A stretch of DNA of 64,000 nucleotides from positions 768,001 through 832,000 of the forward strand of contig CAVVJT010000010.1 of the NCBI GenBank assembly GCA_963748625.1, read 5' to 3'. Shown one piece after another: positions 5,156-63,799 of this stretch; position 1 is the stretch's first letter; each line of letters opens with the position of its first letter. This DNA is from an uncultured Chloroflexia bacterium (GTDB lineage Bacteria > Chloroflexota > Limnocylindria > Limnocylindrales > CSP1-4). The notes beneath the pieces are model-generated. The model saw nothing but the letters and a program-made list of their open reading frames with translations. It ran no database searches and was not told where the DNA came from. A program made the position numbers and the translations under genes.

Positions 5156-5624
5156 CTACTCCTCCGGAGCGAGCACCCAGCGATCGATCTCGCGCTCGTA
5201 GTTGAGCAGCTCCTCGGGCTTGAACCACAGGGCGAGCTCGGCGGCGGCGTTCTCGGGGCTGTCGGACGCGTGGACCAGGTTCTGCGCGGTCTCGACGGCG
5301 AAGTCCCCCCGGATGGAGCCCGGAGCGGCCTCGTGCGGGCGCGTCGCGCCGTTCATCGCGCGGACGATCGCGATCGCGTTGGGGCCTTCGAGCGCCGCGG
5401 CCACGAGCGGGCCGGAGGTGATGAAGTCCACGAGGCCCTTGAAGAACGGCTTCTCGCTGTGGACGGCGTAGTGCTGCTCGGCCAGGGCGCGGTCCACGTG
5501 CGACGAGCTTGAGACCGACAAGCTTGAGGCCGCGCTCCTCGAACCGGGTGATGACCCGGCCGACGAGCTGGCGCTGGACGCCGTCGGGCTTCACGAGGAG
5601 AAGGGTTCGCTGGAGCTCTGCCAT
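5156..5624 (-). CDS. ndk: Nucleoside diphosphate kinase (frameshift near 5500)
   Basis: [18 protein letters not shown]...ITSGP...PGSIRGDF...NLVHASDS with the catalytic His. Confidence 0.96.
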
Positions 5625-5797
5625 GGGTGCTGCACGCCTCGCTGGTTCGCGGAGCCGGCGGGCCGGTCCGCGGTTCGGTTTGTGGTGGCGCGACTCCGTG
5701 CACATCCTTGCGGACGGACGGCGCGACGCGGGAGGGACAGGGTAGCGCGGCTCGGAGCGGGCCGTGCGCCGCCTGCCGGCCGCCTGACTCGCCCAGA

Positions 5798-8133: not shown

Positions 8134-8293
8134 CGCCCGATGGTAGCCCGTCCGGACGTCGGGCCGCGCCGCCCGGGTCCGATGCAAGGCCTGCCCGCGT
8201 ACCGGGCCCACCGGCGTCGCGCCTCCCGCGTACCGGGCACTGCGTGCAGGATCCTGCGTGACCTGCCCCCCACCGTCCCGGGCCGCTGAGCCG

Positions 8294-10080: not shown

Positions 10081-10116
10081 GCCCAGCCCACGACGATGCC
10101 GGAGGGTGACGAGCAC

Positions 10117-12943: not shown

Positions 12944-13913
12944 GTGGACCTGCAGCTGATCATGGCGGCCGGCATCGCGGTGGGCACGATCCTGCTGTTC
13001 GCCGCCCTGGGTGAGATCCTGGCCGAGCGGTCCGGCGTCCTCAACCTCGGCGTCGAGGGCATGATGCTGATCGGCGCGGTCGTCGGCTACGCGACCGCGG
13101 TGTCCACCGGCAACGCGTGGCTGGGCGTTGTCCTGGCGATGCTGGCCGGCGGTGCACTGAGCCTCCTGCACGCGCTCGTGACGATCACCTTCCGCGCCGA
13201 CCAGGTGGTGTCGGGCCTGGCGCTGACGTTCCTGGGCACGGGCCTCGCGCGCGTCCTCGGGCGAGGGCCTGAGCAACGCCGGCTCGATCGCGCTGCTGCC
13301 GCGCTTCTCGATCCCGGGCCTGTCCGCGATCCCGGTGCTGGGGCCGATCGCGTTCACCGAGCAGAGCATCCTGGTCTACGTTGGCTACCTGCTGGTGCCG
13401 GCGGTCTGGTACTGGATCAACCACACGCGCCCGGGGCTCAACCTGCGGGCGGTGGGCGAGGAGCCCGCGGCGGCCGACGCGCTGGGCGTGAACGTGTACG
13501 CGACGCGCTATCGCTACGTCTTCGTGGGCGGGCTGCTGGCAGGCCTCGCGGGGGCCACCATCACGCTGGCGATCCAGCCCGGCTGGTTCGGCGACCTCAC
13601 GGTCAACGAGCGCGGCTGGATCGCGATCGGCCTCGTGATCTTCGCCCAGTGGTCGCCGTTCCGGGCGGCGTTCGGGGCGTTCCTGTTCGGCTCCGTCGTG
13701 CAGCTCACCCTGTCGATGCAGCTGCCGCCCACGATCCTGGGTTTCGCGAACCCATTCTTCCAATACCACGCGAACACGTTCTTCCTGGAGATGCTCCCGT
13801 ACGCGCTGGTGCTGCTGGCACTCGTGCTGGGCTCGCGTGAGGCGATGCGCAAGCGTCTCGGTGCGCCGGCGGCACTGGGCATCCCGTACGTCCGGGGCGA
13901 GCGCGGGCGGTAG
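12944..13913 (+). CDS. ABC permease 2 (BPD_transp_2); frameshift near 13265
   Basis: ERSGVLNLGVEGMM, ADQVVSG, GEEPAAADALG, RGWIAIGLVIF, APAALGIPY. Confidence 0.9.
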
Positions 13914-26493: not shown

Positions 26494-28155
26494 ATGACCG
26501 ATCTCAAGCCCCTCGTCCCTGCCCGGGCCGCGCGCGGCGCCCGAGGCGCAGTCGTGGCACCGCACCACCTCGCCACGACCGCCGGCCTGGCCGTGCTGGC
26601 CGCCGGCGGCCACGCTGTCGACGCGGCGATCGCCACCAACGCCGTGCTGGGCGTCGTGATGCCCAACGGGTGCGGCATCGGCGGCGATGCGTTCTGGCTC
26701 GTCTGGGACGACGGTGCCGGTGAGCAGGTGGCGCTCAACGGGTCCGGGCGAGCGCCCGCCGCAGCCACTGCCGGGCTCCTGCGCTCACGCGGGTTGGAGC
26801 GCATCCCGCTCCGCGGCCCGTATGGCATCACCGTTCCGGGTGCCGTCCGCTCCTGGGCCGATGCCCACGCCCGCTGGGGCCGCCTGTCCCGGGACGTGAT
26901 CCTCGCCGCCGCCATCGAGCACGCCGGGGCCGGGTTCCCCGCATGGGAGGGCCTCGTCGACGCGGTCGAGGCGACCGACGCAAGCCTGGGCGACGCAGCC
27001 TGGGCCGAAGGGTTCCGGCGGGTCTGGCGGCCTGCCGCGAGGCCCTGGCGCCCGGGCGAGATGATCCGGCTTCCGGCCCTTTCGGCAACCCTGCGCACCT
27101 TGGCCGACGAAGGGTTCGACGCCTTCTACGACGGCTCGCTGGGTGAGCGGCTGGCTCGCAACCTGGCCGCCTCGGGCGCCCTGCACACCGCCGCCGACCT
27201 CCACGCTCATCGCAGCACGTGGGGGACCCCGATCGCGACCGAGTACCGGGGTGTCCGCGTCACCACCCATCCGCCCAACAGCAGCGGGCTGCTCGCGCTC
27301 GAGATCCTCAACATCCTCGCGGAGTTCGAGCCACCGCCCGCCGCCGCCTTCGGGCCGCGGGGCTGGACCGATGCGGCGTGGCCGCACCTCTGGCTCGAGG
27401 CTGCCAAGCTCGTCTACGCCGATCGCGACGCGACCCTCACCGATCCGGCCTTCCGCGATGTGCCCGTGGACGTGCTGCTCTCGCGGCAGCGCGCGACGAC
27501 GCTCGCCGGGCTGATCGACCCCCGCCGGGCCGACCCCTCCCCTGCCCCGGTCCGGACGCTCGTGGGCGGGACGATCTACCTCGCGGTGGTGGATGCGCAG
27601 GGCAATGCCGTGAGCCTGATCCAGTCGAATGCGGCAGGCTTCGGCTCAGGGGTCGTGGATGCCGAGACGGGCGTCCACTACCAGAACCGGGGAGCGTCGT
27701 TCTCGCTGGACCCCACTCACCCAAACGTGATCGAGCCGCGCAAGCGGACGGCGCACACGCTGCTGCCCGGGATGCTGTTCAGGGTGGGCCAGCGACGGCC
27801 GTGGATCGTGGGTGGCTCCATGGGCGGCGACATCCAGCCCCAGGTGCACGCCCAGCTGGTGTCCGCACTGGTCGACGGGAGCGCGGACCTGGCGACGGCC
27901 GTCGCGGCGCCGCGGATCACGGTTGAGCCCGCGGGCTGGCTCGCACCACCGACGGCCGTCTTCGCTGACGGCACCTTGTCGGACGGTGTCCCCGACGGGC
28001 TTCGCGAGCGAGGCCACGATCTCGGGCTGGAGCCGTACAACGGCGCCCTGGGCCACGAGCACGCGATCGAGCTGGTCGATGGCGGACCTGCCCAAGGTGG
28101 CAGCCTGCTGGCGATGACCGATCCGCGCAGCGCGGGGCTGCCTGCGGTCCGGTAG
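26494..28155 (+). CDS. Gamma-glutamyltransferase family Ntn hydrolase (YwrD-like)
   Basis: GGHAVDAAIA, GIGGDAF, TVPG, PPNSSG, autoproteolytic Thr in GGTIYLAVVD, QNRG, MGG..QPQ, DPR. Confidence 0.93.
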   Translation: MTDLKPLVPARAARGARGAVVAPHHLATTAGLAVLAAGGHAVDAAIATNAVLGVVMPNGCGIGGDAFWLVWDDGAGEQVALNGSGRAPAAATAGLLRSRGLERIPLRGPYGITVPGAVRSWADAHARWGRLSRDVILAAAIEHAGAGFPAWEGLVDAVEATDASLGDAAWAEGFRRVWRPAARPWRPGEMIRLPALSATLRTLADEGFDAFYDGSLGERLARNLAASGALHTAADLHAHRSTWGTPIATEYRGVRVTTHPPNSSGLLALEILNILAEFEPPPAAAFGPRGWTDAAWPHLWLEAAKLVYADRDATLTDPAFRDVPVDVLLSRQRATTLAGLIDPRRADPSPAPVRTLVGGTIYLAVVDAQGNAVSLIQSNAAGFGSGVVDAETGVHYQNRGASFSLDPTHPNVIEPRKRTAHTLLPGMLFRVGQRRPWIVGGSMGGDIQPQVHAQLVSALVDGSADLATAVAAPRITVEPAGWLAPPTAVFADGTLSDGVPDGLRERGHDLGLEPYNGALGHEHAIELVDGGPAQGGSLLAMTDPRSAGLPAVR

Positions 28156-28277
28156 GGCTCGGGCCGACCGGGAGGCAGCCCCGAGCGGTCGGCGCCCGAT
28201 GGTATCCTCGGCCGGCTGGTGGCAGCCGCGCTCGCACACGACCTGCCGCCGGAATCGTGTGGAGAGCGGAGGCACAG

Positions 28278-28550
28278 GTGACCTCGAACGTCGGGCAGAG
28301 CTACCCCTACAGCAGCGAGTCGGAGGCGGAGCGCGCCGCCGTGATCGCGGCGCTCGTCGAAGCGCGCGAGGGCCTGGCCGACAAGCTCAAGGCCGAGACC
28401 AACCCGCTCGACCAGGCCGAGCGCCGGTGGGTGTACAAGTGCCCCACCAAGGGCTGCACGGGCCTGCTCCACGCGGCGGGGTACGCGGTCGAGAAGCACG
28501 CCGTCTTCGTCGTCTGCGACGGGACCTGCGCCAAAACCTTCCTGCGCTAG
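28278..28550 (+). CDS. Small Cys-rich putative metal-binding protein (90 aa)
   Basis: GGAGG RBS then GTG; CPTKGC...CDGTC. Confidence 0.72.
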   Translation: MTSNVGQSYPYSSESEAERAAVIAALVEAREGLADKLKAETNPLDQAERRWVYKCPTKGCTGLLHAAGYAVEKHAVFVVCDGTCAKTFLR

Positions 28551-28584
28551 CCGCCTGCGCGAACCGCACGGTCCGCGCGACCCC

Positions 28585-29433
28585 ATGACCACGCCCCCGG
28601 GGCCCGATCCCAGCCTGCGCGCGGCCCGCCGCCAGCTCCTGCTCGACACGGCCGGGATCGTCGCGTCGATCGTCGCCTTCGGCTTCGTCTTCGGTCTCGC
28701 CGCCAAGGAGGCCGGCCTCTCGCCCATCGAGGCGAGCGCGATGAGCCTCTTGTGCTTCGCCGGGGCGGCGCAGTTCGCGGCGGTGGGCTATGTCGCGGCC
28801 GGGCTGCCGTGGCTGCCGATCGTCGTCCTCACGGCGGCCCTCAACGCCCGCCATCTCCTCTACAGCGCGAGCCTTGCGCCGGGTCTCCGACGCGTCGCCT
28901 CCCGTCCGCACCGCGCGTTCATGGCCCACTTCCTGACCGACGAGGCATTCGCGCTGACCGCGGCGCACTTCCACCGGCTCGGCGCACCGGATGCGCTCGG
29001 CTACTGGATCGCGGCGGTGGTGGGCGTCTTCATCCCCTGGAACCTCGCGACGATCGCCGGGGTGCTGCTCGGCGGCGCCATCCTGGAACCACGGCAGCTC
29101 GGCCTGGACATCGTGTTCCCGGCGGCGATGGCGGGGCTGGCCGTCGGCCTGGTCACGGGCCGGCGGGAGCTGGTTGCGGCGGGCGCGGGCGGGGCGCTGG
29201 GCGTCGTGGCCTCGCTGGTCCTCGGGCCTGGCGTCGGGATCGTCGTCGGCGGGCTGTTGGGGCCGCTGGCCGGGATGGCGGTGCCGGAAGGGCGAGTGCA
29301 CCTGTCGCCTGAGTCCGACGTGAGCGGGCAACCCGTGGACATCGACCTCGCGGTGGCCGAGGCCGGATCGCTCGATGCTGCTGGGACCGTGGCACCACAG
29401 GCTGCCGAAGCGTCGCCGGAGCGGCCATCGTGA
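28585..29433 (+). CDS. azlC: AzlC family branched-chain amino acid exporter, large subunit
   Basis: FAGAAQF, NARHLLYS, LTDEAFA. Confidence 0.9.
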   Translation: MTTPPGPDPSLRAARRQLLLDTAGIVASIVAFGFVFGLAAKEAGLSPIEASAMSLLCFAGAAQFAAVGYVAAGLPWLPIVVLTAALNARHLLYSASLAPGLRRVASRPHRAFMAHFLTDEAFALTAAHFHRLGAPDALGYWIAAVVGVFIPWNLATIAGVLLGGAILEPRQLGLDIVFPAAMAGLAVGLVTGRRELVAAGAGGALGVVASLVLGPGVGIVVGGLLGPLAGMAVPEGRVHLSPESDVSGQPVDIDLAVAEAGSLDAAGTVAPQAAEASPERPS

Positions 29434-29762
29434 GCACGGAGCTCGTGGCCCTCGCCGCGCTGATGATGGTCGTGACGTACCCGTCGCGCGCCCTGCCCCT
29501 CCTGGCGCCCGGCATCGAACGGTTGCCGCCGAAGGCCCTGCTCTACCTGCGCCTCGTAGGTCCTGCCGTGCTGGCGTCCCTCGCGGCGGCGAACACGCTG
29601 GTGGCCCCGACGGCGGAAGGCGGATACTCCATGCACGTCGGCGTGGACGCGCTCGGAGTGCTGCTGTGTGTCGTCCTTGTCGCGTGGCGGCGCAACCTGT
29701 TCCTGGGGCTCTTCGCGGGGGTGCTGCTCGTGGCCGTCCTTCGGGTGCTCGGCGCGGCCTGA
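29430..29762 (+). CDS. azlD: AzlD family small subunit
   Basis: TYPSRALP, GPAVLASL; GTGA overlap with azlC. Confidence 0.85.
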   Translation: MSTELVALAALMMVVTYPSRALPLLAPGIERLPPKALLYLRLVGPAVLASLAAANTLVAPTAEGGYSMHVGVDALGVLLCVVLVAWRRNLFLGLFAGVLLVAVLRVLGAA

Positions 29763-29789
29763 TGGGCCGTGGGCATGGCAGGCGCGCTG

Positions 29790-29978
29790 GCCCCGGATCT
29801 CATTCCTCTGCGGATCGAATCGGCCAACGATCCCCGTGGGGATGAGATCCGCCCCGGCCGTGCGGAGGTCGCGCACCGAACCCCAGGTTCAGGGTCCGAA
29901 CCCTGCACGGACCGCCGCGATTCGATCCCTGCGGGGATTAGTCGGCGATTCCATCCGTGTGCGGATGAGATCCGGCCT
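29790..29978. repeat. Palindromic dispersed element, copy 2
   Basis: Terminal inverted repeat CCGGATCTCAT...ATGAGATCCGG; homologous and inverted relative to 8294-8470. Confidence 0.82.
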
Positions 29979-30056
29979 CGAGTGCGAGGATCAGGGCCGA
30001 ACCCGACGTTGGCGGCCGGACGCGTCGCCGGGCGCCGGACCTCAGATCGGGCGTGG

Positions 30057-30443
30057 TCAGGCGCGGCGCGCCTCTGCCTCGATCTCCACCAGCAGTGTCG
30101 GCTCGATCAGGCGGGCCACCACGACCAGCGTGGCCGCCGGCCGGACATGCCTGAACACCTCGCCATGGACCGCCACCACGGCGTCGGCGTCGGCCGGATC
30201 AACGATGTACATCCGGGTGCGCACGACCTCCTCGAGCGCGAAGCCGGCCTGACCAAGCGCACCTTCGATGATGGCGAGTGCCGCCCGGGCCTGCGCGGCG
30301 GCATCACCCGGATGCAGCGAGCCGCCGCCGGGACCCGCGTCCGTCGTGCCTGCGACGAAGCAGGCGTCGCCCACCGCAACCGCGCGCGAGTAGCCGCCTG
30401 CGGCCTCCCACGGGCCGCCCGAGGTGACGTGCCGGCGGCTCAC
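30057..30443 (-). CDS. RidA/YjgF family protein (Rid7-like)
   Basis: SGGPWE...GYSRAV, VAGTT, VVRTRMY, RPAAT, LVEIEAEA. Confidence 0.9.
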   Translation of the reverse strand: MSRRHVTSGGPWEAAGGYSRAVAVGDACFVAGTTDAGPGGGSLHPGDAAAQARAALAIIEGALGQAGFALEEVVRTRMYIVDPADADAVVAVHGEVFRHVRPAATLVVVARLIEPTLLVEIEAEARRA

Positions 30444-31729
30444 CGTGCACCCGCCGCGCCCGTTGCGCCCGTTGCGCTCGCGGCACCCGCCGTCCGCGCC
30501 TCGCGCTCCGCACGCCAGCCGGCAATCTCCGGGTCGCGTCCGATCGTCGCGATCAGGCCGGCGAGCAGCACCGTCCGCGGCACGATCGAGGCGACCTCCA
30601 GGTACTCCTGGGGCGAGTGGTCCATCCCGCCGATCGGTCCGAGCCCGTCGATCGTGGGCACGCCCATGCCCGCCGTCGTGTTCGCATCCGAGGCCCCGCC
30701 GGTCGCGGCGTCGCGCAGGTCGATGCCCAACGCCGCCGCGAGCCCGATCGCATGATCCACCAGCCTGCCCGAGCGCTCCAGCTTCTCCATCGGCCAGTGT
30801 CGCCCAGTCTGCTCGGCCGCCACGGTCACGTCGGGCACCAGGCGCGGCACGAGGATCTCGGCAATCGCGGCCTCGACCGCCTCGAGCCCTTCGCGGGTGA
30901 CCGCCCGCACATCCACCTCCAGCGAGCAGCGCTCGGCGACGACGTTCGGGCGCGTGCCGCCCTCGATCACGCCCACGTTCACCGTCACGCCCGCCCACCG
31001 CCCGTTCAGGGCATGCAGGTCCAGCGTGATCCGGGCCGCCTCGAGCACAGCGCTGCGGCCTTTCTCCGGCTCCACGCCCGCATGTGCGGCGCGCCCGTTG
31101 ACCGACACGATGAGATCGAGCGTGCCCTTGCGCGAGGACACGATGTCGCCGTTGGCCCGCGCGCACTCGAAGACCAGGCACGCGTCGGCATCCTTGGCCA
31201 GGCGCCGGATGTGGGGCGTTGACACCGGCGAGCCGATCTCCTCGTCAGGGTTGGCCACGAAGACGAGACGCGCCAGCGGCAGCCCGCCAAGTGCCTCGCG
31301 GACCGCCGAGATCGCGTAGAGGCCGGTCAGCAGGCCGGACTTCATGTCGGTGACGCCGGGTCCGGTGGCGATGCCACCCTGGATCGAGAACGGCCGCTCC
31401 AGGACGGTCCCTGGATCGAAGACGGTATCCATGTGCCCGATGCACAGGAGCGTCGGGCCGTCCGGCTGCGTGCCCCGGAACTCCGCCACGACCGTCTCGC
31501 CGAGGTCCTGGTCGTTGGCGTAGCCGCACACCGAGGACGCACCCATCGCGCGCAGGTGCTCCATCGTCCAGCGGCCGATGATGTCCACGCCCGACTTCGT
31601 GTACGAGCCGCAGTCGGTGTTGACCAGCCGCTCGAGGTCGGCCATGTAGGCGTCGTGAGTGCGCTCGACGACCTCGCGCAGGGCGGCGATCTCCTCGAGC
31701 GTGACAAGCGTGGGGTCGAAGGCTGGCAT
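30440..31729 (-). CDS. M20 family metallopeptidase (glutamate carboxypeptidase-like)
   Basis: GHMDTV, GPGVTDMKSG, DEEIGS, AHAG, GGASDAN, DGLG..G..HS. Confidence 0.92.
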   Translation of the reverse strand: MPAFDPTLVTLEEIAALREVVERTHDAYMADLERLVNTDCGSYTKSGVDIIGRWTMEHLRAMGASSVCGYANDQDLGETVVAEFRGTQPDGPTLLCIGHMDTVFDPGTVLERPFSIQGGIATGPGVTDMKSGLLTGLYAISAVREALGGLPLARLVFVANPDEEIGSPVSTPHIRRLAKDADACLVFECARANGDIVSSRKGTLDLIVSVNGRAAHAGVEPEKGRSAVLEAARITLDLHALNGRWAGVTVNVGVIEGGTRPNVVAERCSLEVDVRAVTREGLEAVEAAIAEILVPRLVPDVTVAAEQTGRHWPMEKLERSGRLVDHAIGLAAALGIDLRDAATGGASDANTTAGMGVPTIDGLGPIGGMDHSPQEYLEVASIVPRTVLLAGLIATIGRDPEIAGWRAEREARTAGAASATGATGAAGAR

Positions 31730-31892
31730 GCGGGAGAGGGTACCGCGCGCGGGTCTGCACAGCCCGAGCGCATCGGGGAGCCGCTGCGCAGCCCGAGCGC
31801 ATCGTGGGCCGGTTGCACCGACCGAACCCGCCGCCGATCCGCTGCGCAACCCCCCGACGGGCCGGTCCGTCGCTCGGTAGAGTGTCCGGACC

Positions 31893-33607
31893 GTGCGACT
31901 CGTCGAGATTCGGCTCCTGGAGGGTCCCAACGTCTACCGGCTCATGCCGGTGGTCAAGGTTGAGGTTGCCGTCGGGCGGGCGCGGGTCTGGAAGGGGTCG
32001 CGCGACGGGGGCGACGGGGCGCTCGTGCACATCGGCCGGACGGTCCCGGCACGCGAATGGCCGGACGCCGTGACCGATCTCGTCGCCTGGATCCGGCGGC
32101 TCCGGGCCGACCATGACGAGCACCCCGGACCGGTGCAGGTCCATCGCGGCACCGATGCCGGGCGATGGGTGGCCACGTGGCCCTGGGCCGGCGCGGGGCG
32201 TGCCCGCGAGATCGCCGAGGCGGCGGTGGACCTCGCCGGGCGCCCGGTCTCGCCGGCCAGGAAGGTCCGCCTGACAGGCACGCAGGCGCGCCTGGTTGCG
32301 GGGTGGCAGGAGCGGATCGCGGCGGCGTCCACCGTGCCGCCGTCCTGGATCCGGGACGAGGAGCGCCGCCAGCCGGTGGTCAGCATCACCGGCACCAACG
32401 GCAAGTCGACCGTGACCCGGCTGATCACGCACATCCTCCTGGGCGCCGGGCACCACGTCGGCACCACCACCTCGGACGGGATCCTCGTGGACGAGCGGAT
32501 GGTGGAGGCGGGCGACTGGACCGGACCCGGCGGAGCCGTCGCGATCCTGCTCCGCGACGACGTGGACATCGCCGTGCTCGAGACCGCGCGCGGCGGACTG
32601 GTCCTGCGCGGCATGGGGTACGAATCCAACGACGCGAGCGTGTTCACCAACCTCTCCTCGGACCACCTGGACCTGCAGGGCATCCACACGCTCCCCCAGC
32701 TGGCCGAAGTCAAGGCGACGGTCTGCCGCATCACGCGCCCGGACGGCGCGACGGTGCTCAACGCCGATGATCCGCTCGTCGCCGGGGTCGCGCGCCGGGT
32801 TCGCTGCACGGTGGGCTACTTCAGCATGGCGCCCGACGGGTCCCGCCTGCTCGCCCGGCACCGGCGGAGCGGCGGCCGCGCGTGGGTGCTCCGCGACGAG
32901 ACCCTGTGGGAGTGGGACGGACCCGCCGAGCCACCGGCTCCTGGCGGTGGCCGACCTGCCCGTGGCGCTCGACGGTCTGGCCCGCCACAACATCGCGAAC
33001 GCGCTCGCTGCGGCCGGAGGCGCCCGAGCCCTGGGCGCGACGCGCGAGCAGGTGGTCGAGGGCCTGCGTGCCTTCCGCCCCTCAGCCGAGCTGTCCCCTG
33101 GGCGCTGCAACCTGTTCCGGCTCGGGCAGCAGATCGTGATCGTGGACTTCGCCCACAACGAGGCGGGCACCGAGGCGATCCTGGACGTGGCCCGCGGGAT
33201 CTCGCGGCGCGAGGTGGCGCCGGCGGTGCACCGTCAGGCAAGCCCCCCGCCCGTCACGGCCATCATCGGCACGGCCGGCGACCGCCCGGACGAGACCATC
33301 AGCGGGGTGGGCAGGATCGCGGCCACCCTGGCCGACCGGATCGTGATCAAGGAGACGCCGCACTACACCCGGGGCCGGACCCGCGAGGAGGTGGTGGAGC
33401 TCCTGCGGGCGGGCATCGCGGAGGGCGGGGCCGATCCTGCAGCGGCGGCCGTCCACCCGTCCGAGACGCTCGCGCTGGCCGCGGTCCTCGACGCCACCGA
33501 CGAGACCCGGCGTCGTCGTCCTGTTCTGCCACGAGGAGCGTGACGCCGTGTTCGCGTTGCTCGAGCAGCGCGGGGCCGTCGCGCTCGATCTCACCGCCGA
33601 GGGCTGA
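31893..33607 (+). CDS. Cyanophycin-synthetase-like protein: short CphA-type N-terminus plus Mur-like (M) domain, no ATP-grasp domain; frameshifts near 32925 and 33505
   Basis: MRLVEIRLLEGPNVY, then after ~160 aa ITGTNGKST, ETARGG, SDHL, LNADD, GRCN, DFAHN, GDR, IKE..RGR. Confidence 0.8.
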
Positions 33608-33671
33608 CGAGCCCAGGCTCCGGGGGTGAAGGCGCGCCAGACCTGGCCACAGCCGAAGGCGTCGCCGGGCA

Positions 33672-33687
33672 CCGGGGTTCGCCCCGG
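33672..33687. terminator. GC hairpin between the convergent cph genes
   Basis: ccgggg-ttcg-ccccgg; no U-tract. Confidence 0.35.
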
Positions 33688-33705
33688 GTCGGCCGAGGGG
33701 CCTCG

Positions 33706-36591
33706 TCAGCCCTCGGGAGCCTCCCACTCACCCGGGTCCGCGAACGCGGTGCCGCCCTGGCTGCCGGCGCCGAGCGCCATGGCCTCCCGGTAGACGTTGA
33801 AGGCGTCGTCGGCGCACACGACAACCAGATCACCGGGTGACGCGCGCCGGAGCGCAAGCCGGACCGCCGCCTCCTCCTCGAGCACCTTGTCGACCTTGTG
33901 CACGCGGCCGGTGCCATCGCCCTTGGCCGCCCTCGCGCCTGCGGCGACGTTGGCCGCCGACTCGCCGGGAGGCCGCCCGCGCAGGTGCTTGTCCTCGCGG
34001 ATCACGATCTCGTCGAAGGCGCTCGCTGCCAGATAGCCGTAGTCGTGCTGGTCCTGGTCGCGCCGGTCACCGGGGATCCCGATGACGCCGATCGCGCGAC
34101 CCGTGCGCGGCCGGGTTGCCGGCCCGTGACCGCCGCCGAGGATGCCTGGCCGGGTCACCGGCTCCGTCATCATGCGGTTCACGAAGTCGGCAAGATTGCG
34201 CATTCCGTCCACGTTGTGGCAGTAGTCGATGACCACGCGCGTGCCTGCGACCTCGACCAGGTTCAGGCGGCCCGGCGCCTGGAAGAAGGACGTCGTGAAC
34301 GTCCGCAGGCCCTGGCGGATGTCGTGGAGGTGGGCTCCCGCTGCCCACGCGGCGGCGGCCGCGGCGAGCGCGTTGGCGACGTTCATCCGGGCCCGGCCCT
34401 GGAACGTGGACGGCATGAGGTGCGTGTACAGGACCGGCATCTTGCGCGGCCCGTGCTTGAGCACGATCAGCTCACCCTGCGGGGTGTCCTCCAGGCAGAA
34501 CGCGGCGTTGCCGCGGTTCGTATGCCCGTCCACCCGGTCGTAGCCGTCCTCGCCCTTGTGCTTGGCCATCGTGAACAGCACGACGCGCCCGGCGCAGTGG
34601 CGGCCCATGCGGTACACGTGCGGGTCGTCCGCGTTGAGCACGGCCGTCCCCGAGCGCGGGACCGCCTCCACCAGGACGCCCTTGACGCCCGCCAGCTGGC
34701 CGAGGGTGTCGATGCCGCCGAGCCCGAGGTGGTCGCCGGTCACGTTGGTGACCACGGCGACGTCGTTGCGGTCGTAGCCGAGGCCCTCGCGCAGGATGCC
34801 GCCACGCGCGACCTCGAACACGGCGGTGTCCACGGTGGGGTTCTGGAGCACCATCTGCGCCGACTTGGGGCCGCTCATGTCGCCGCGCTTCATGAGGCGG
34901 CCGTCGATCACGATGCCGTCGGTCGAGGTCATCCCGATCCGCCGGCCCATGAGCTTGAGGATGTGGGCGATCATCCGGACGGTGGTCGTCTTGCCGTTCG
35001 TGCCGGTGACCGCGATGATCGGGATCCGGGCAGGGGCGCCGGCCGGGAACAGCAGGTCGATCACCGGCTTGGCCACGTACTGGGGCTCACCCTCGGTGGG
35101 GTGCGTGTGCATCCGGAACCCGGGTGCTGCGTTCACCTCGACGATGCCGCCGCCGGTCTCGCGGACGGGCTCGGTGATGTCGGGGCAGATGAAGTCGATG
35201 CCCGCGATGTCGAGACCGACCATTCGCGCCGCGGTCTCCGCGATCTCAACGTTGTCGGGGTGGGCCTCGAACGTGCGGTCGATCGAGGTGCCGCCGGTGC
35301 TCATGTTGCCGGTCAGCGCCAGCTTCACGAACGCACCTTCGTCCGGGATGCTGTCGGGCGTGTAGCCCTGGCCCGCCAGGACCTCGTCGGCGGTGGCGTC
35401 GAGGCGGATCCGGGTCAGGACCTTCTCGTGGCCGATGCCGCGGCGCGGATCCTGGTTCGTCTCCTCGACGAGGTCGCGCACGGTCCTGCGCCCGTCGCCG
35501 GTGACGCTGGCCGGGACGCGCTCGGCGATGGCCGCGACCTGACCACCGATCACCAGGCAGCGATAGTCGCGACCGGTGAGGTACGTCTCCACCACGACGT
35601 CGCCGCGGCGGCTCTGCCGCACGGTCTCCGGCCAGGCCGCGCGGACGGCAGCCTCGTCCTTGAGGTCCAGGGCGACGCCGCGACCGTGATTGCCGTCGAG
35701 CGGCTTGATGACGCACGGGAAACCGAGGCGGCGGGCGGCCCGGGCGGCGTCGTCCTCCGTGTCCACCACCTCGCTGCGGGGCACGGGGAGCCCGGCCGAG
35801 TCGAGCAGGCGGTTGGTCAGCTTCTTGTCGGACGCGATGTCCACCGCGATCCCGCTCGTGCGGCTGGTCATCGTGGCCCGGATGCGCTGCTGGTGGACAC
35901 CCTGGCCCAGCTGGACGAGGCTGTAGCGGTCCAGGCGCATGAAGGGGATGTCGCGGATGGCGGCCTCGTCGAGGAGCGCCTGGGTGGACGGGCCGAAGGC
36001 GAGCCGCTCCGCCTGGCGGATGAGGTCCTCGAGCTCGGCCTGGTAGTCGAAGGCGTGCGCGGGATCGTCGGGGGCGACGAGGTGGTTGACGAGCCGGACG
36101 GCCTTGTTGCCCGCCTCGATGCCGATGTGCTCCTCGCGGTACTCGAAGATCACGTGGTAGCGGCCGTGCTCCCCGGTGCCGCGGGTCTTGCCATGGCGGA
36201 CAAGGGTCCCGGCGAGGTTCTGCAGCTCGAGTGCGACGTGCTCGGCCACGTGGCCCACCCAAGTGCCGTCGCGCAGCCTGCTGATGAAGCCGCCGCGGCG
36301 GCCCAGGGAACACGCGTGATCGTCGAGGCTGGGGATCAGCGCGATGAGCGAGTCGGCGAAGCCCGGCAGCGTGGCGGTGTTCCACGCCTCGAGCACGCCG
36401 AGGTCCACGGTCATCTTGATCGACGGCTCCTTGGCCCAGTAGTTGGGACCGCGGAGGACGCGGGTCTCGAGGATGCGCAGCTCCGGCGCGGGGGCGGGGG
36501 GCGCCGGATCGGCGATGGGGGCAGGGCTCACCGCCGGTGCCGCCTTGTCCTTGCGCGGCCGCTTCGGAGAAGCGGGATCCTTCTGCGCCAC
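33706..36591 (-). CDS. cphA: Cyanophycin synthetase (full N-G-M architecture)
   Basis: LRGPNYW, HACS..RGGF..R..GT..GHVAEH, GPST, KPLDGNHGRGV, GHEK.LT, EVNAAPGFRMH, GTNGKTT, EVARGG; GAGGAGG RBS before the GTG. Confidence 0.96.
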   Translation of the reverse strand: MAQKDPASPKRPRKDKAAPAVSPAPIADPAPPAPAPELRILETRVLRGPNYWAKEPSIKMTVDLGVLEAWNTATLPGFADSLIALIPSLDDHACSLGRRGGFISRLRDGTWVGHVAEHVALELQNLAGTLVRHGKTRGTGEHGRYHVIFEYREEHIGIEAGNKAVRLVNHLVAPDDPAHAFDYQAELEDLIRQAERLAFGPSTQALLDEAAIRDIPFMRLDRYSLVQLGQGVHQQRIRATMTSRTSGIAVDIASDKKLTNRLLDSAGLPVPRSEVVDTEDDAARAARRLGFPCVIKPLDGNHGRGVALDLKDEAAVRAAWPETVRQSRRGDVVVETYLTGRDYRCLVIGGQVAAIAERVPASVTGDGRRTVRDLVEETNQDPRRGIGHEKVLTRIRLDATADEVLAGQGYTPDSIPDEGAFVKLALTGNMSTGGTSIDRTFEAHPDNVEIAETAARMVGLDIAGIDFICPDITEPVRETGGGIVEVNAAPGFRMHTHPTEGEPQYVAKPVIDLLFPAGAPARIPIIAVTGTNGKTTTVRMIAHILKLMGRRIGMTSTDGIVIDGRLMKRGDMSGPKSAQMVLQNPTVDTAVFEVARGGILREGLGYDRNDVAVVTNVTGDHLGLGGIDTLGQLAGVKGVLVEAVPRSGTAVLNADDPHVYRMGRHCAGRVVLFTMAKHKGEDGYDRVDGHTNRGNAAFCLEDTPQGELIVLKHGPRKMPVLYTHLMPSTFQGRARMNVANALAAAAAAWAAGAHLHDIRQGLRTFTTSFFQAPGRLNLVEVAGTRVVIDYCHNVDGMRNLADFVNRMMTEPVTRPGILGGGHGPATRPRTGRAIGVIGIPGDRRDQDQHDYGYLAASAFDEIVIREDKHLRGRPPGESAANVAAGARAAKGDGTGRVHKVDKVLEEEAAVRLALRRASPGDLVVVCADDAFNVYREAMALGAGSQGGTAFADPGEWEAPEG

Positions 36592-36805
36592 GGGCTCCCT
36601 CCTCGATATGCGTGGGACCGGAGTGTAGGGTCTGGCGGGTCGTGCGGCTACGCGATTCCCGGCGCGGCCCGGCCGCTCCCCCCAACGATGTGGCGTCCGG
36701 GCCGCGTCCGTGCAGGGCTCGACCACCCGTCTGTCGATCCGGAGGTCGAACCTCGAGGGCCTGCCGGCCAAGCGCCCCATGTCTGGGGAAATCTCTTGCC
36801 GAGGG

Positions 36806-37636
36806 TCAGACAGCCGCGTCGCCCAGGGCGTCGGTCACCGTACTGTCGGCCACGCGCGTGCGGCGCCGGAGGTCGAAGCGGTAGCCCGCGGGCAGGCTGT
36901 GGAGCACCACGCCGCTGATCATCAGCGGGCGGTGGCCGCGGATCTCCCAGGCGTCGGTCTCGGAGGCCGCTCCGTCGACAACAGTGATCGAGCCGCGCCC
37001 GATGACCTCCATCACCTGGTCCGGGCCCACGACGCCGGCCGTGTCCTCGTCCACGCCGAGACCCAGCAGGCTGGGGTTCTGGGCGATCAGGCTCAGGAGC
37101 CGGCCGAGGCGGTTCCGCTGCTGGAAGTGCTGGTCCACGATGACACCTGGCAGCAGGCCGAGTCCGGCGGCGATCTGGGCCATCCGGTGCTTGGGCGTGG
37201 CCCCCGACGCGCCGAAGGCGATCATGTGGCTGGACACGGCGCTCGCGCCCGCGGAGGTTCCGGCCACAACGGCTCCCCTGCGGAAGCTCTCCACCATGGC
37301 ACCGGCTACCCGCGTGCCGCCGAGCATGGACGAGAGCCGCAACTGGTTGCCGCCCGTCATGAAGACGCCGCTGCTCTCGGCGATGACCTTGGCTGCATGC
37401 TCGTCGTTGGCCTGCGCCCGGGTGGTGGTGTTCAGCGGGGTCACGCTGGCCGCGCCGAGCTCGGTGAAGATCGCCTTGTACCGCTCCCCGGCCTCAAGAC
37501 CGAAGGAGCTGGCCGTGGCGATCACGGCGATCCGGGCATCCGGACCACCGGCGAGCTGCGCGAAGCGGGCGAGGATGACGCGGTCGCGGACCTTGTCCTC
37601 CGCCCCGCCAATGACAATCACGGTTCCGTGCGGCAT
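36806..37636 (-). CDS. cphB: Cyanophycinase (peptidase S51)
   Basis: IGGAEDK, TGGNQ, GTSAG nucleophile, DQHFQQRNRLGRL, GVDEDT, LH. Confidence 0.95.
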   Translation of the reverse strand: MPHGTVIVIGGAEDKVRDRVILARFAQLAGGPDARIAVIATASSFGLEAGERYKAIFTELGAASVTPLNTTTRAQANDEHAAKVIAESSGVFMTGGNQLRLSSMLGGTRVAGAMVESFRRGAVVAGTSAGASAVSSHMIAFGASGATPKHRMAQIAAGLGLLPGVIVDQHFQQRNRLGRLLSLIAQNPSLLGLGVDEDTAGVVGPDQVMEVIGRGSITVVDGAASETDAWEIRGHRPLMISGVVLHSLPAGYRFDLRRRTRVADSTVTDALGDAAV

Positions 37637-37911
37637 GGTCGCAGGAGTCTACCAGCGGTCCTGTTCGGCACCAGCGGTCCTCTTCGGCACCAGCACCGTG
37701 GCCCACTCCGTGGTTGCATCCTGCCCCTTGTGTGGGGCATTTCGGCGGGTCGTGAGCGTGCCGTGGGAGCGAACGTCGAGGTTTCCGACGCAGACCGTGC
37801 GTGCGAGGAGCGGAATCGCCCCCCTGGTGGGGCGCGGCGCAGGCATTGGCCCGCTCGGGCGCAGTCGCCGCGACGCCACGTGTACCCCTTCACGAGCGAG
37901 AATGCACGTGC

Positions 37912-38916
37912 ATGGACGTGAACGCCGCTCCCCGGGCGCGCCCCGCCCGCAGGGCAGGGGTGGTCCGGCGCGCGCTCCGCCGTGAGACCGTCCGCATCCG
38001 GTCGCCCCAGCGCGCGCTGGCCATGGTGCTGCTCGCGGCCTGGTTCGGCTTCGTGCTCGCCGGGATGATCGCCCGCGGCGACAATGCGGCCGCCGACGCC
38101 CAAGCCTATTGGGCGGCCGTGAGGATCTGGCTGGAGGGCGGCGACCCGTACCACCCCACGGGGCCGTTCCTGCCCTACGTCTACGCCCCCTGGATGCTGC
38201 CCCTGTTCGCGCCGTGGGCGATGCTCCCGTGGAACGTCGCGTGGTTCGTGTGGCGGGGCGCCTCGCTGCTGCTCTGGCTCTGGACGGTGCGCTGGGCGTA
38301 CGCACGCCGGCCGCTGGCCACCGCGATCCTGGTCTGGCTGCTGCTCATCCCGATGCTCAGCAGCATCGACACCGGGAACATCAACCTCCTGCTCGCGCTG
38401 GCGCTGTTCGGCGCGCACTTCATGGGGCCGCGGGCGGGCGGCCTGATCTGGGGTCTCGCGACGTGGATGAAGTGGGTACCCGCCGTCATCTGGTTCTTCC
38501 TCCCGCCGCGGACCCGGTCCTGGGGCCTCATCTTCCTCGCGCTCTCGGGCGTGCTGTCGCTCCTGATGCTGCCGCTGACCATCGTCCAGCTCCAGGCGCT
38601 GTTCGGCTTCGGGACGCGGCCGTTCCGCGCGGACTTCTTCGTGTTCGTCTGGGCGGTGGTGCCATGGTGGTGGCAGCTGCATCACCCGTTCGCGTTCCTC
38701 CAGCCGCGGGCCTGGCGGGCAGCAATCGCGAAGCAGTGGGCGCGGGTCCGCCGCTGGGCAACGGGCTTCCGGACCCGGCCGCGGGCGACCGCTGAGCTCG
38801 CACGGATCAAGACCAGGGCGTTCCTGCGCGCCTACCTGGGGCTGGACCGGCAAGCTCCGTCCAGGCGGGCGCGCAAGGTCGAGGTCGTGCACGTGGCCGC
38901 CGACATCGGCGACTGA
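37912..38916 (+). CDS. GT87/DUF2029-like membrane glycosyltransferase (GT-C fold)
   Basis: DAQAYWAA...GGDPY...PYVYAPW, GNIN, K.VP; multiple TMs. Confidence 0.75.
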   Translation: MDVNAAPRARPARRAGVVRRALRRETVRIRSPQRALAMVLLAAWFGFVLAGMIARGDNAAADAQAYWAAVRIWLEGGDPYHPTGPFLPYVYAPWMLPLFAPWAMLPWNVAWFVWRGASLLLWLWTVRWAYARRPLATAILVWLLLIPMLSSIDTGNINLLLALALFGAHFMGPRAGGLIWGLATWMKWVPAVIWFFLPPRTRSWGLIFLALSGVLSLLMLPLTIVQLQALFGFGTRPFRADFFVFVWAVVPWWWQLHHPFAFLQPRAWRAAIAKQWARVRRWATGFRTRPRATAELARIKTRAFLRAYLGLDRQAPSRRARKVEVVHVAADIGD

Positions 38917-39026
38917 CGGCAGGTCCATGGGCCCCGGCCGTGGTCCCGGGTCAGCCGGGGAGACCGCGGGAATCGGAAGGCCCGGCCGAAGGGCGACCGG
39001 GCCTTGTCGAACCAGGAGCGGACCGG

Positions 39027-40385
39027 TCAGGCTGCGGCTGCCCCCACCGCCGGAATGCGGCTGCGACGCGGCTCCACCACCGGCCGCAGGGTGACGGCGG
39101 CGAGGGCGAACCCCGCGACCGCGAGCATGAACACGACACGCGGGCTGAGGGGCTCATAGCCGGCACCGGTAACCATGTCCAGCACGAGACCGCCGATCGC
39201 GATCGACAGCGGCGCCGCCGACCCCGTCGCGACGTTGCTCATGCCCATGTACCGGCCCGCCGAAGCCCGCGGGATGATGTCCGTCATGAGCGCCCAGTCC
39301 ACGGCGAGGAACGTCCCGTTGGCGGCCCCGAACAGGGCGGCGCCTGCGATCGCCAGCGGGATCGACGGCGTCAGCGCGATGATCCCGGACCCGATGGCAC
39401 CGAAGGCGCAGGCGCCGAAGATGACCGCCTTGCGTCCGATCCGGTCGGACAGCTTGGAGGCCGGCAGGATGGCGATCGCGCTGGCGAGGATCACGGCGAC
39501 CAGGATCACGACGTACATCCCGTTCGCCTCGACCTTGTCCATGCTGAACGCCCGGCTCAGGTAGATCACGACGAAGTTCACGAGCAGCGAGCCCGCGGTC
39601 AGGAACAGCAGCCGGGAGAACAGCAGCCAGACATAGGAGCGCTCGTGCAGGATGTCGGTCGCCCACGCCTCGCGGGCGATCCGCGGCCAGGAGCGGCCCT
39701 CGCGGTCCTTGGGCGGCATCCCCTTGCCCACCTTGAGCACCACCGAGAGCATGGTGACCAGCTCCACGATGGCGATCGCGACAAGCGACAGGTGCATCGC
39801 CCCGAAGGCGACCGACAGCGAGACCAGCAGGAACCCGGTCACGTTGCCGGCGACCTGCATCAGGCCGACCATGCCGCTGGCCATGCCCACCTGGGGTTCG
39901 GCGACGAGGTCCGGCACGTAGCCCTGGAACGGGCCGCGCGCGATGTTGGTGCTGACCGAGAGCAGCAGCATGAACACGGCAAGCGAGAGCACCGTGTTGC
40001 CGTTGGCGATCGCCAGCAGGAAGACGACGTCCAGCAGCGAGCCGAACACGATGTACGGCTTGCGGCGGCCCCAGCGGCTCACGGTGAAGTCGCTGATGTA
40101 GCCGACCGTCGGCTGGATCAGGATGCCGATGATGGCGGCGAAGATGCCGATGAAGAACATCGACTGGCCGACGCGTTCGACAGGAACCAGCCCGTCGAAC
40201 TCGAGACGGTTGGTGATGAACAGGCCGACGGCGGCATCGATGGCGGTCAGGCCCAGCCAGTAGGCGGAGATCCTGAGCAGCTGGGTCAGCGGCAGCAGCG
40301 CCGTGGGGCGTGCGCCCTCCTCGGCTGGGTCGCCGGTCGCGATGGTGGCGGTGGTGGCGGTGTCGTCCACGGTCCGAGCTCCCAT
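39027..40385 (-). CDS. MFS transporter (SLC45/GPH-like)
   Basis: QPTVGYISD..SRWGRRKPY, PFQGYVPDLV, SDRIGRK, VDWAL..D. Confidence 0.9.
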   Translation of the reverse strand: MGARTVDDTATTATIATGDPAEEGARPTALLPLTQLLRISAYWLGLTAIDAAVGLFITNRLEFDGLVPVERVGQSMFFIGIFAAIIGILIQPTVGYISDFTVSRWGRRKPYIVFGSLLDVVFLLAIANGNTVLSLAVFMLLLSVSTNIARGPFQGYVPDLVAEPQVGMASGMVGLMQVAGNVTGFLLVSLSVAFGAMHLSLVAIAIVELVTMLSVVLKVGKGMPPKDREGRSWPRIAREAWATDILHERSYVWLLFSRLLFLTAGSLLVNFVVIYLSRAFSMDKVEANGMYVVILVAVILASAIAILPASKLSDRIGRKAVIFGACAFGAIGSGIIALTPSIPLAIAGAALFGAANGTFLAVDWALMTDIIPRASAGRYMGMSNVATGSAAPLSIAIGGLVLDMVTGAGYEPLSPRVVFMLAVAGFALAAVTLRPVVEPRRSRIPAVGAAAA

Positions 40386-40420
40386 CCCGCTTGGAACCCC
40401 TCGGGTTCGGTTCCGCCGGT

Positions 40421-41140
40421 CTAGGCTGTGCCGGCGTCCTTGGGCTGGCCGCGCTCATCGAGCGCGATCGTGTGGTGGAGACGCACGAGATGCCGGTCCG
40501 TTGCGCCCTCCGCCGCGAAGCGGAAGAGCGAGCGGTCGATCGAGTACAGGGCGGTCGAGGCGAGGCCGATCGACCCCAGCCGGTAGGCGAACACCGGGTT
40601 CTCCGGGTTGCCGGCGTAGTGGTGCGACGAGCCGCCGGCCGCAAGCGTGGCGAGATTGGCGACGCCGCCGAACTGCGCGTGGAGGCCCGCGAGGAGGGCC
40701 GGGGCCTCGCCGTCCGCCCAGGCGTCCTCCAGCCAGCGCGCGCCCGCCTCGGTGTCGGCACGGCCGTGGATGCGGCCCTGGTCCTGGTAGCGGCTGCGCG
40801 CCGCCTGGTAGTCCGCGAGCTCGCCGTTGTGGCAGAACGCGAAGCGTCCCGCCGGGTCCGCGAAGGGCTGGGTGTCGGCCAGCTGGATCGTTGAGAGCTT
40901 CGAGGGGCGGCGCAGGTGGACGAGCAGGCTCGTGGTCTCGGTCGCGCCGACCACGTCCCGTGCCGGGTCGTCGCGGAAGGCGGCGGTGGTCCGGTGGGTC
41001 TCGAGGGTTCCCGCGGGCGTCACCCAGGCCGCGCCCCAGCCGAAGCCGGCGAGACCCCAGCGCTCCATCCGCTCCACGAGGTCCCACAGGGCATCCAGGC
41101 GGAACGGGGAGGCGGCACGGGCAACGAGCTGCTCACACAT
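40421..41140 (-). CDS. Class II glutamine amidotransferase-like Ntn hydrolase (YafJ/EgtC-like)
   Basis: Cys2 (MCEQL), GWG, HLRRPS, TQPF, HNG, DTE; TATGAT 8 nt before the ATG. Confidence 0.82.
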   Translation of the reverse strand: MCEQLVARAASPFRLDALWDLVERMERWGLAGFGWGAAWVTPAGTLETHRTTAAFRDDPARDVVGATETTSLLVHLRRPSKLSTIQLADTQPFADPAGRFAFCHNGELADYQAARSRYQDQGRIHGRADTEAGARWLEDAWADGEAPALLAGLHAQFGGVANLATLAAGGSSHHYAGNPENPVFAYRLGSIGLASTALYSIDRSLFRFAAEGATDRHLVRLHHTIALDERGQPKDAGTA

Positions 41141-41161: not shown

Positions 41162-41548
41162 GGGCGTACCCTCGTGAACGATTCGTGCCCTCCGGTCCTG
41201 CGGCGCGCCCGTCGGGCCTGGTGAGGTTCGAGCTCCCGCCTGGCGGGCCGTGCGTGCAGAACTTGGCACGTCCGTGCCGCTCCGGGGGCAGGAACCCGCC
41301 CTTGCGGTGGTTCCGGGGCCGATCCTCCCGCCCGGCGGGCCATCTGCGCTGAAGCCTGCACGTAGGGCCCGCCCAGCGGGAGGCATTCGCCCGGTGCGCG
41401 GTCGCGGCCTGGTGCGTGGTCGCGGCCCGGTGCGTGGTCGCGGCCCGGTGCGTGGTCGCGGCCCGGTGCGTGGTCGCGGCCCGGTGCGTGGTCGCGGCCC
41501 GTCCAGTTCGACCGTGGGCGTACGCTCGTGAACGATTCGTGCCCTCCG
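41162..41548. repeat. 33-bp direct repeat (41162-41194 and 41516-41548) enclosing an 18-bp x6 tandem array (41389-41501)
   Basis: gggcgtac(c/g)ctcgtgaacgattcgtgccctccg, 32/33 identical; unit gcccggtgcgtggtcgcg. Confidence 0.92.
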
Positions 41549-62700: not shown

Positions 62701-62709
62701 TCGCCCTGG

Positions 62710-63678: not shown

Positions 63679-63799
63679 GGTGCCGTCACGTCCTCCCGCG
63701 CCCGGTCCTGCGGGCGGCTCCCGGCGCCGCCCGGCCCTGCCGGGACGCAGACTCTACCACCGCGAGGCAAGGACGATGCCCGTGGGGACGGGACGCTGG

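Follow-up and report, generated by a model that had tools for sequence, protein, structure and literature searches.

A CphA-like protein without the ATP-grasp domain, encoded beside cphA1 and cphB in a Chloroflexia genome, as a possible accessory side-chain ligase of cyanophycin

Cyanophycin synthesis is ascribed either to CphA1 acting alone or to CphA2, which repolymerizes dipeptides, and these are the only two synthetases described in PMC10273328 and PMC9262961 (articles given by PMC number are cited here for their accessible parts). CphA2 is a reduced relative of CphA1 with the N domain and one catalytic activity (PMC10273328); its G domain is active, and its M domain is truncated and inactive, having neither the P-loop nor Mlid (PMC10273328, PMC9427784). 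Here we describe a CphA-like protein with the reverse reduction, in which the G domain is absent while the P-loop and Mlid are present, as an initial reading of the DNA without database searches (the sequence-only reading) had stated. Its gene, hereafter the paralog, lies next to cphA1 and cphB in a 64-kb stretch of DNA from an uncultured Chloroflexia bacterium (G+C content, approximately 72%), hereafter the window. CphA2 has been described as cyanobacterial, at least in the accessible parts of the literature, whereas members of the paralog family were found in Chloroflexota, Thermomicrobia, and Actinomycetota, with wastewater Dermatophilaceae among them. We regard the family as a new, uncharacterized architectural variant of the cyanophycin synthetase family.

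The canonical cphB-cphA1 pair noted in the sequence-only reading is clearly identified in the window. The window CphA1 contains the Cyanophycin_syn, ATP-grasp, Mur_ligase_M, and Mur_ligase_C families of Pfam together with all the motifs named in that reading, and it retains the N-domain C...HxxEH site. Its true start is probably further downstream than that of the maximal open reading frame (ORF), since the conserved N domain begins at residue 101 of the ORF. The paralog is convergent with cphA1, as had been noted as well. It starts with a GTG codon at 31893, the N terminus is MRLVEIRLLEGPNVY, and the P-loop GTNGKST is at residue 167. The positions of the three genes and of the parts of the paralog are as follows.

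36806-37636, minus strand: cphB, cyanophycinase (Peptidase_S51 of Pfam, 83.1 bits)
33706-36780, minus strand: cphA1, canonical cyanophycin synthetase 1 with N, G, and M domains, given as the maximal ORF (TIGR02068, 1117.7 bits; cut-off, 850)
31893-32930, plus strand: paralog piece 1, frame 0 (Mur_ligase_M, 65 bits; cut-off, 24)
Approximately 31893-32384, plus strand: predicted degenerate CphA N domain of the paralog, within piece 1
32391, 32580, 32658, and 32760, plus strand: positions of the P-loop, ETARGG, DHL, and NADD motifs, respectively, in piece 1
32931-32932, plus strand: frameshift site 1, an extra base in a CC dinucleotide (gag-CC-acc), located by homolog alignment
32932-33501, plus strand: paralog piece 2, read in frame +1 and covering the end of Mcore plus Mlid (Mur_ligase_C, 32.9 bits; cut-off, 28.4), with the motifs PGRCN, DFAHN, GDRPD, and KETPHYTRGR
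33502-33508, plus strand: frameshift site 2, an extra base within GAGACCC, located by homolog alignment
33509-33607, plus strand: paralog piece 3, read in frame +2, with the C-terminal sequence GVVVLFCHEERDAVFALLEQRG... and the stop codon at 33605-33607

The G domain is absent from the paralog. No ATP-grasp family of Pfam matches the paralog pieces in the window or the intact homologs. The only families detected in the window paralog are Mur_ligase_M (PF08245) and Mur_ligase_C (PF02875), both above their gathering scores, and the intact homologs give the same two; this is the outcome that the sequence-only reading had expected of a Pfam scan. The GPN motif and the P-loop are 117-157 residues apart in the paralogs and 479-489 residues apart in CphA1. 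That reading had also raised the possibility that the missing domain is an assembly deletion or a one-off pseudogene and had pointed to 32300-32400, the junction between the N domain and the P-loop, as the place to check. Contigs assembled from public sequencing runs span this junction with no extra sequence, and the missing G domain is therefore not an assembly deletion. A one-off event fails as well, given that the architecture is conserved across the family.

The similarity of the remaining part to CphA1 is evident in profile comparisons. NCBIfam has no model dedicated to the paralog family, and its best match is TIGR02068, which gives 382.5 and 390.1 bits with the intact homologs P0036 and P0002, respectively, and 226.8 bits with piece 1 of the window copy (cut-off, 850). 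The paralogs match only approximately positions 471-858 of the 862 positions in this profile. A profile built from 117 family sequences matches the CphA1 M domain in the PDB at 390 bits (E = 1.5e-115), while MurE reaches no more than approximately 100 bits. The M domain of the paralog is 40-44% identical to the CphA1 structures (TIGR02068; PDB 7LG5/7LGJ/7LGQ and 7WAC-7WAE) and 43% identical to the window CphA1 over Mcore. The scores with Mur ligase models are far lower. The paralog gives 113.6 bits with the murE model TIGR01085 (cut-off, 257.3) and 118.7 bits with NF001126 (cut-off, 373), and it is below every cut-off of the murC, murD, and murF models. With the PgsB/CapB model TIGR04012 (cut-off, 222.7), P0036, P0002, and piece 1 give 28.7, 24.3, and 26.5 bits, respectively, and the match is confined to the P-loop stretch.

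An AlphaFold2 model of P0002 (mean predicted local distance difference test score, 94.1; predicted template modeling score, 0.92) was compared with known structures. Foldseek matched the model with the CphA1 M domain, and the alignments with full-length CphA1 chains covered approximately 395-403 columns at 38-40% identity. VIA-align superimposed residues 1-550 of the model on residues 1-877 of TeCphA1 (7wae_A) as a single body in which the G domain is skipped (Z = 40.3, root-mean-square deviation = 2.6 Å for 508 residues), whereas Mur ligases gave Z values of approximately 24-26. Since the model overlays 7wae_A outside the G domain, the fold of the N domain and its placement against the M domain appear to be CphA1-like. 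The paralog thus appears to share with CphA1 the N-domain fold and the position of the N domain relative to M, and it has the same genomic linkage to cphB; it differs in lacking the ATP-grasp G domain and the N-domain Cys and HxxEH. The tetramerization Trp (Trp672 in SuCphA1), mapped by hand, is not conserved in the paralog. The architecture of the paralog is an N domain, probably a degenerate form of that of CphA, fused directly to a complete CphA-type M domain (Mcore and Mlid). Without an ATP-grasp G domain, the paralog cannot elongate the Asp backbone.

The N domain is strongly diverged in sequence. In an hhalign comparison with 36 CphA1 N domains, the probability for the paralog N domain was 93% (global mode, E = 4.6e-8) or 87% (local mode). 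In the alignment, the paralog N domain is 17 residues shorter across the Cys loop and has other residues in place of HxxEH, in agreement with the statement in the sequence-only reading that the N-domain C..H..EH site is absent. The N-domain profile A2 also matches CphA1 N domains in genomes (E = 5e-8). These observations suggest that the paralog has kept the N domain of CphA in a degenerate form from which the metallopeptidase site has disappeared.

In contrast to the metallopeptidase site, the nucleotide-binding and catalytic residues of the M domain are retained throughout the family. Gly167-Thr173 (including Lys171), Glu230-Gly235, Asp257-His258, Lys274, Asp292, and Arg404 are invariant in the 117 family sequences, and Ser194, Asn290, His421, and Asp454 are conserved in at least 90% of them. 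The residues were mapped to CphA1 by hand from the printed profile alignment to 7lg5, and the CphA1 equivalents of the conserved residues include Lys499, Thr500, Thr522, Glu558, Asp585, His586, Arg731, and His748. In TeCphA1, Lys499, Thr500, Thr522, Glu558, Arg731, and His748 make contacts with ATP or Mg (PMC9427784), and mutation of Asp585 or His586 inactivates the M domain of CphA1 (PMC9262961). All the ATP-binding, Mg-binding, and catalytic residues of the M domain are thus present in the paralog family, as judged from this mapping.

The differences from CphA1 in the M domain should also be noted. Among 38 CphA1 M domains, 89 columns are conserved at 95% or more, 51 of which are common to the paralogs. 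Three of the 89 are switched to another residue in the paralogs (Ser to Gly, Arg to Leu, and Tyr to Phe, the last in DYxHN), and the other 35 are below the 90% threshold, many of them still having the same residue in 75-90% of the paralogs. The L021 rows, which have very long branches, were left out of this count. The stretch preceding LRGR is clearly different: FD..II.RED.N-LRGR in CphA1 corresponds to A.RV.IKE...YLRGR in the paralogs, with a one-residue insertion. We take the LRGR region to be the counterpart of the amino-acid-selecting DNPR motif of MurE.

Intact homologs of approximately 560-600 residues are numerous in databases. The best 120 database matches are 70-86% identical, and 104 of these 120 are 545-660 residues long with GPN near the start. 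In a tree of 88 M domains, 49 paralogs and 39 CphA1s are parted by a single branch (Shimodaira-Hasegawa-like approximate likelihood ratio test support, 100), and the groupings within the two halves are similar. No Mur ligase ORF with a P-loop that could serve as an outgroup was recovered near the weak C4 match. The tree is therefore unrooted, and the word clade here means one side of a branch; in this sense, the paralogs form their own clade beside the CphA1 M domains. The loci labeled as Verrucomicrobiia (L029), Acidobacteriota (L040), and Pseudomonadota (L043) may be mis-binned, and no further phyla were credited to the family on their account: in the tree, L040 and L043 fall inside Chloroflexota clades, and L029 is approximately 68% identical to the query. 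The 22 loci L055-L076, which contain Clostridia-type Mur ligases at 23-27% identity, were left out of the family. The Dermatophilaceae members (L045:7835-10024, L048:5588-7777, L051, and L047) have an extra C-terminal extension of approximately 170-190 residues. Weak similarity of TPR type is seen in the extension of L045, where residues 586-706 match PrsT and there is also a match to a SycD-like family, and TPR_5 is present in 12% of the members of one Atlas cluster.

The paralog family is conserved and linked to cphA1 and cphB in several lineages, being nearly always adjacent to them. The sequence-only reading had called for a search for homologs of the same architecture beside cphA and cphB in other genomes, and such homologs are common: 33 of the 43 loci with a recognized paralog ORF also carry both genes. 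Among the other 10 loci, the sequence stops at the paralog in L024 and L028, approximately 360 nt past it in L047, and inside cphA1 in L030; the remaining six are considered below. In a survey of 401 genomes of the phylum, tallied by hand from tables, the paralog is present in 36 genomes and cphA1 in 50; 35 genomes have both, 15 have cphA1 only, and one (G306) has the paralog only. In 32 of the 35 genomes with both, the two genes are on one contig, within approximately 5 kb and convergent. Within the family to which the window belongs, the paralog is missing from 12 genomes, and all 12 are without cphA1 too. The exceptional genome G306 belongs to the same genus as the window. In G306, cphB has been deleted entirely and cphA1 up to its last 59 codons, while the paralog lacks the first 81 codons and has a frame change near codon 465 (L095, G306:C24:176000-186000, approximately 3700-7800), which looks like joint decay of the cph cluster. 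The paralog and cphA1 are convergent in the Limnocylindria-type and Dermatophilaceae loci, and a Thermomicrobiaceae contig has the co-directional order paralog, cphB, cphA1.

In literature searches on cyanophycin synthetases, which included bioRxiv and, for part of the papers from 2024 on, the titles and the openings of the abstracts, no CphA relative consisting only of N and M domains was found to be described, and the accessible parts of PMC10206079 do not mention truncated CphA forms. The statement in the sequence-only reading that no characterized example was known agrees with this result. A probable precedent is the report by Farmer et al. (2023) on Tetrasphaera metagenome-assembled genomes (MAGs), in which two neighboring cphA copies are found with cphB nearby (PMC10687191). 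Transcription of the shorter copy is lower than that of the longer one, and both genes are treated as cphA, with no domain analysis in the accessible parts of the article (PMC10687191). In our Dermatophilaceae loci L045, L048, and L051, a shorter CphA-like gene lies beside cphA1-cphB, and by analogy the shorter Tetrasphaera copy is probably a member of the paralog family. In the Atlas, clusters of 573-608 residues from Chloroflexota and Actinomycetota are labeled "hypothetical", "Mur ligase family protein", or "putative cyanophycin synthetase"; the NCBI label for relatives is "Mur ligase family protein".

The reading frame of the window copy needs a separate account. The sequence-only reading had assumed a single ORF of approximately 570 residues, and this did not stand. 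A tblastn alignment of intact homologs shows that the coding sequence is split over three frames by two extra bases, and that the mechanical 578-residue ORF at 31893-33629 is a frame-0 run-on which is out of frame after approximately residue 345. The motifs listed for the paralog in that reading are all present, though not in one frame: frame 0 holds GPNVY, GTNGKST, ETARGG, DHL, and NADD, and frame 1 holds DFAHN, GDRPD, and KE..RGR. Frame 2 holds the C-terminal FCHEE. When the three pieces are joined with X at the breaks, a product of 569 residues with no stops inside the pieces is obtained; its identity to the intact homolog P0002 is 80.8% in an alignment of 558 columns.

A Viterbi scan of codon usage was carried out over the whole assembly (4.63 Mb, 10 contigs), in which a frame switch was counted when it was on the same strand and the outgoing frame was free of stops within 75 nt. 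The scan gave 368 candidate frame switches genome-wide and 12 in the window. Five of the 12 are located in four genes whose Pfam matches are distributed over more than one frame. These genes encode an H+-PPase (profile positions 1-176 and 177-441), an M16 peptidase in three pieces, an ABC ATPase, and a BPD_transp_2 permease. A further split gene is that of NDK (profile positions 1-37 and 39-134), at a site below the length filter of the scan. Because the assembly is rich in 1-nt indels, gene calls from this genome need frameshift-aware reading; the frame-split regions of the window include 1-1557, 5159-5618, 6977-8160, 10096-11678, and 12944-13907. At site 1, the base at 32931 is absent in a contig from run X8 (827 nt, approximately 93% identical), and a near-identical X3 read begins to align just past the site and is thus silent on the extra base. 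At site 2, the base at 33504 is absent in both an X3 contig (151 nt, one mismatch) and the X8 contig. The public runs with matching contigs have word shares of 0.21 or less, and hence no habitat is claimed; a look-up for expression listed no RNA run with the sequence. Programmed frameshifting was rejected, as the two sites have no common motif, the homologs are unbroken, and frameshifts are common throughout the assembly. The two frameshifts in the window are, with high probability, assembly errors, in which case the organism most likely has an intact gene. The observation made in the sequence-only reading is thus confirmed in part: the gene and its architecture are real, and the ORF is not intact in the assembly, most likely through assembly errors.

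The same bin contains a second cluster of cphA1 and paralog on another contig (C6:50434-55415). The C6 paralog is a single ORF of 587 residues and is 72% identical to the window copy, and the G domains of the two CphA1s are 88% identical. The bin has a contamination of 7.74%, and its size of 4.63 Mb compares with 3.1-3.6 Mb in the three other genomes of the genus that were searched. With such contamination, such a size, and only 72% identity between the copies, C6 may come from another organism.

The function that we favor for the paralog, with about as much for it as against it, is that of an ATP-dependent accessory side-chain ligase of cyanophycin, as its sequence and the structural model suggest. 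The polymer would be held in the groove that separates the N domain from Mcore, as at the M site of CphA1. Cyanophycin is reportedly bound at the M site in the work of Sharon et al. in 2021 (Nat Chem Biol). In CphA1, this site binds cyanophycin between N and Mcore (PMC9427784). The paralog would phosphorylate a free β-carboxyl group of an Asp residue in the polymer, to which an amino acid, most likely Arg or Lys, would then be ligated. As the paralog is unable to extend the backbone, chains from the neighboring CphA1 would be its substrate in trans. The interpretation offered in the sequence-only reading, that of a possible stand-alone side-chain ligase, is partly supported: the architecture, the lost N-domain site, the intact M site, and the linkage to cph genes hold. 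The activities put forward there (ligation of another amino acid, filling of unmodified residues, formation of β-Asp-X units, or co-assembly with CphA1) would be candidate roles.

Several points weigh against this function. The M domain of the neighboring CphA1 is apparently complete, which leaves a second side-chain ligase without an evident purpose; the activity, the substrate, and the product of the accessory role are all predicted. The incoming amino acid may not be Arg, since the region preceding LRGR differs from that of CphA1. As for the N domain, the Pfam model PF18921 matches neither the window N domain at E ≤ 10 nor any of 26 paralog N domains at E ≤ 1, and a phmmer search with the paralog N domain against 1.84 billion representatives gave 130 matches, many of which are fragments or wrong-frame ORFs, with no CphA1 among them. 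The linkage to cph genes, which the sequence-only reading had made a test of the proposal, is usual but not absolute. In the Thermomicrobiales loci L042, L044, L049, and L052, cphA1 is not within 10 kb and is elsewhere in the genome. In L013 and L019, an intact paralog is followed by other genes, with no cphA1-cphB, and no CphA1 G domain was found in the MAGs carrying these loci (G407, 2.6 Mb, and G406, 1.5 Mb, respectively; completeness not given). Furthermore, the linkage counts are not independent events, because the genomes are related and much of the adjacency is synteny. For the window copy itself, the extra base at site 1 is absent solely in the contig of a relative with approximately 93% identity, not in a near-identical strain.

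An ordinary Mur-family ligase for peptidoglycan, poly-γ-glutamate, or folate, placed near the cph genes by chance, is extremely improbable. MurE, MurC/D/F, and the pseudomurein pMur ligases have in common with the paralog the central ATPase and C-terminal folds, the motifs, and the acyl-phosphate ligase chemistry to be expected from them, and both the detection of Mur_ligase_M and Mur_ligase_C alone by Pfam and the NCBI naming would fit such an enzyme. However, the Mur ligases have an N-terminal domain that binds UDP-N-acetylmuramic acid, whereas the paralog has a CphA-like N domain and lies among cyanophycin genes, not in the dcw cluster, in tight co-occurrence with cphA1. Its 382-390 bits with the CphA model are to be compared with at most 119 bits for MurE and at most 29 bits for PgsB, all below the cut-offs, and both the PDB and the fold searches group it with CphA1. 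The grouping with MurC-F or CapB that the sequence-only reading had kept as an alternative fails on these scores, on the fold, and on the linkage of homologs to cph genes. A true pseudogene in the source organism, with both 1-nt insertions in the DNA itself and the family functional elsewhere, is decidedly unlikely. The frame switches are widespread, with housekeeping genes split too, the 151-nt contig with one mismatch has no extra base at site 2, and the correct-frame pieces are free of stops and close to an intact homolog. What speaks for decay is the occurrence of two frameshifts within 1.7 kb versus none in the neighboring 3-kb cphA1, the decayed paralog of G306 in the same genus, and the dependence of site 1 on the contig of the 93%-identical relative. 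A non-catalytic or regulatory partner, namely a scaffold or a chain-length or granule factor that binds cyanophycin or CphA1, is very improbable, even though the N and M body matches the polymer-holding part of CphA1 and the shorter Tetrasphaera cphA, if it is indeed a member of the family, is less transcribed (PMC10687191). The P-loop, the Mg ligands, the DH pair, the Lys, and the Arg and His of Mlid are invariant or at least 90% conserved in 117 sequences from distant lineages, which is the pattern expected of an active ligase.

Two further possibilities keep the predicted catalytic activity of the paralog and change its substrate. The paralog could be a primer or dipeptide synthetase that forms β-Asp-Arg from free Asp and Arg or completes (β-Asp-Arg)-Asp, thus supplying primers or substrates for repolymerization. 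The residues for M-type chemistry are intact, the unprimed first steps are very slow in all CphA1s, for which (β-Asp-Arg)-Asp is the minimal primer (PMC9262961), and the paralog is accompanied by cphA1 in 35 of 36 genomes of the phylum survey. However, the window CphA1 keeps the C...HxxEH site that generates primers, so that help with priming seems unneeded, and an N domain of the CphA fold in the CphA1-like position, which binds the polymer in CphA1, would be odd for an enzyme acting on free amino acids. We therefore consider this role unlikely. It is rather unlikely, too, that the paralog is a second side-chain ligase with its own specificity, adding a residue other than Arg or acting on Asp residues beyond the reach of the M site of CphA1. 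The family-specific changes around LRGR are compatible with such a specificity, and, if it is true, a cyanophycin-like polymer with mixed side chains would be made by an undescribed division of labor between two enzymes.

Under the accessory-ligase reading as well as under the last two, a conserved relative with a predicted activity of the M domain alone points to an unrecognized step in cyanophycin metabolism, for example the completion of side chains, the addition of a different one, or priming. Should residues other than Arg be attached by the paralog, it would offer a natural means of tailoring an industrially interesting polymer. The label "cyanophycin synthetase" on paralogs can inflate counts of cphA.

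The immediate surroundings of the paralog are listed here.

30440-31729, minus strand: M20 metallopeptidase gene, divergent from the paralog (family-library scan)
31730-31892 (163 nt), no strand: intergenic region that separates the divergent M20 gene and paralog, holding a 29-nt direct repeat at 31755-31811

The 29-nt direct repeat has two copies with an 89% match and a weaker third copy, and it may be a candidate site for a regulator; no sigma-70 promoter or intrinsic terminator was found in a scan of 31600-33800. The synteny of the M20 gene with the paralog is restricted to the Limnocylindria-type loci. In L019 (9800-16348), the paralog follows an M20 gene and is followed by a PotA-type ABC transporter operon; in L013 (3700-5687), a minus-strand ORF lies downstream of the M20 gene and the paralog. 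The flank at 26494-31729 encodes GGT, an AzlC-like protein, a RidA-like protein, and the M20 peptidase, and that at 37960-41134 encodes a membrane protein, an MFS transporter, and a GATase-like protein; the gene order of both flanks is kept in the Limnocylindria-type loci. These names were mostly read from the translations, the M20 gene alone having been scanned against family libraries. A 19-nt repeat with 2.3 copies is located at 37651-37694, just upstream of the cphB start, and an 18-nt tandem repeat with 6.3 copies (96% matches) is located at 41389-41501. Further away, a pair of Ku- and LigD-like genes (non-homologous end joining), identified by translations only, is present at 59965-63687 on the minus strand.

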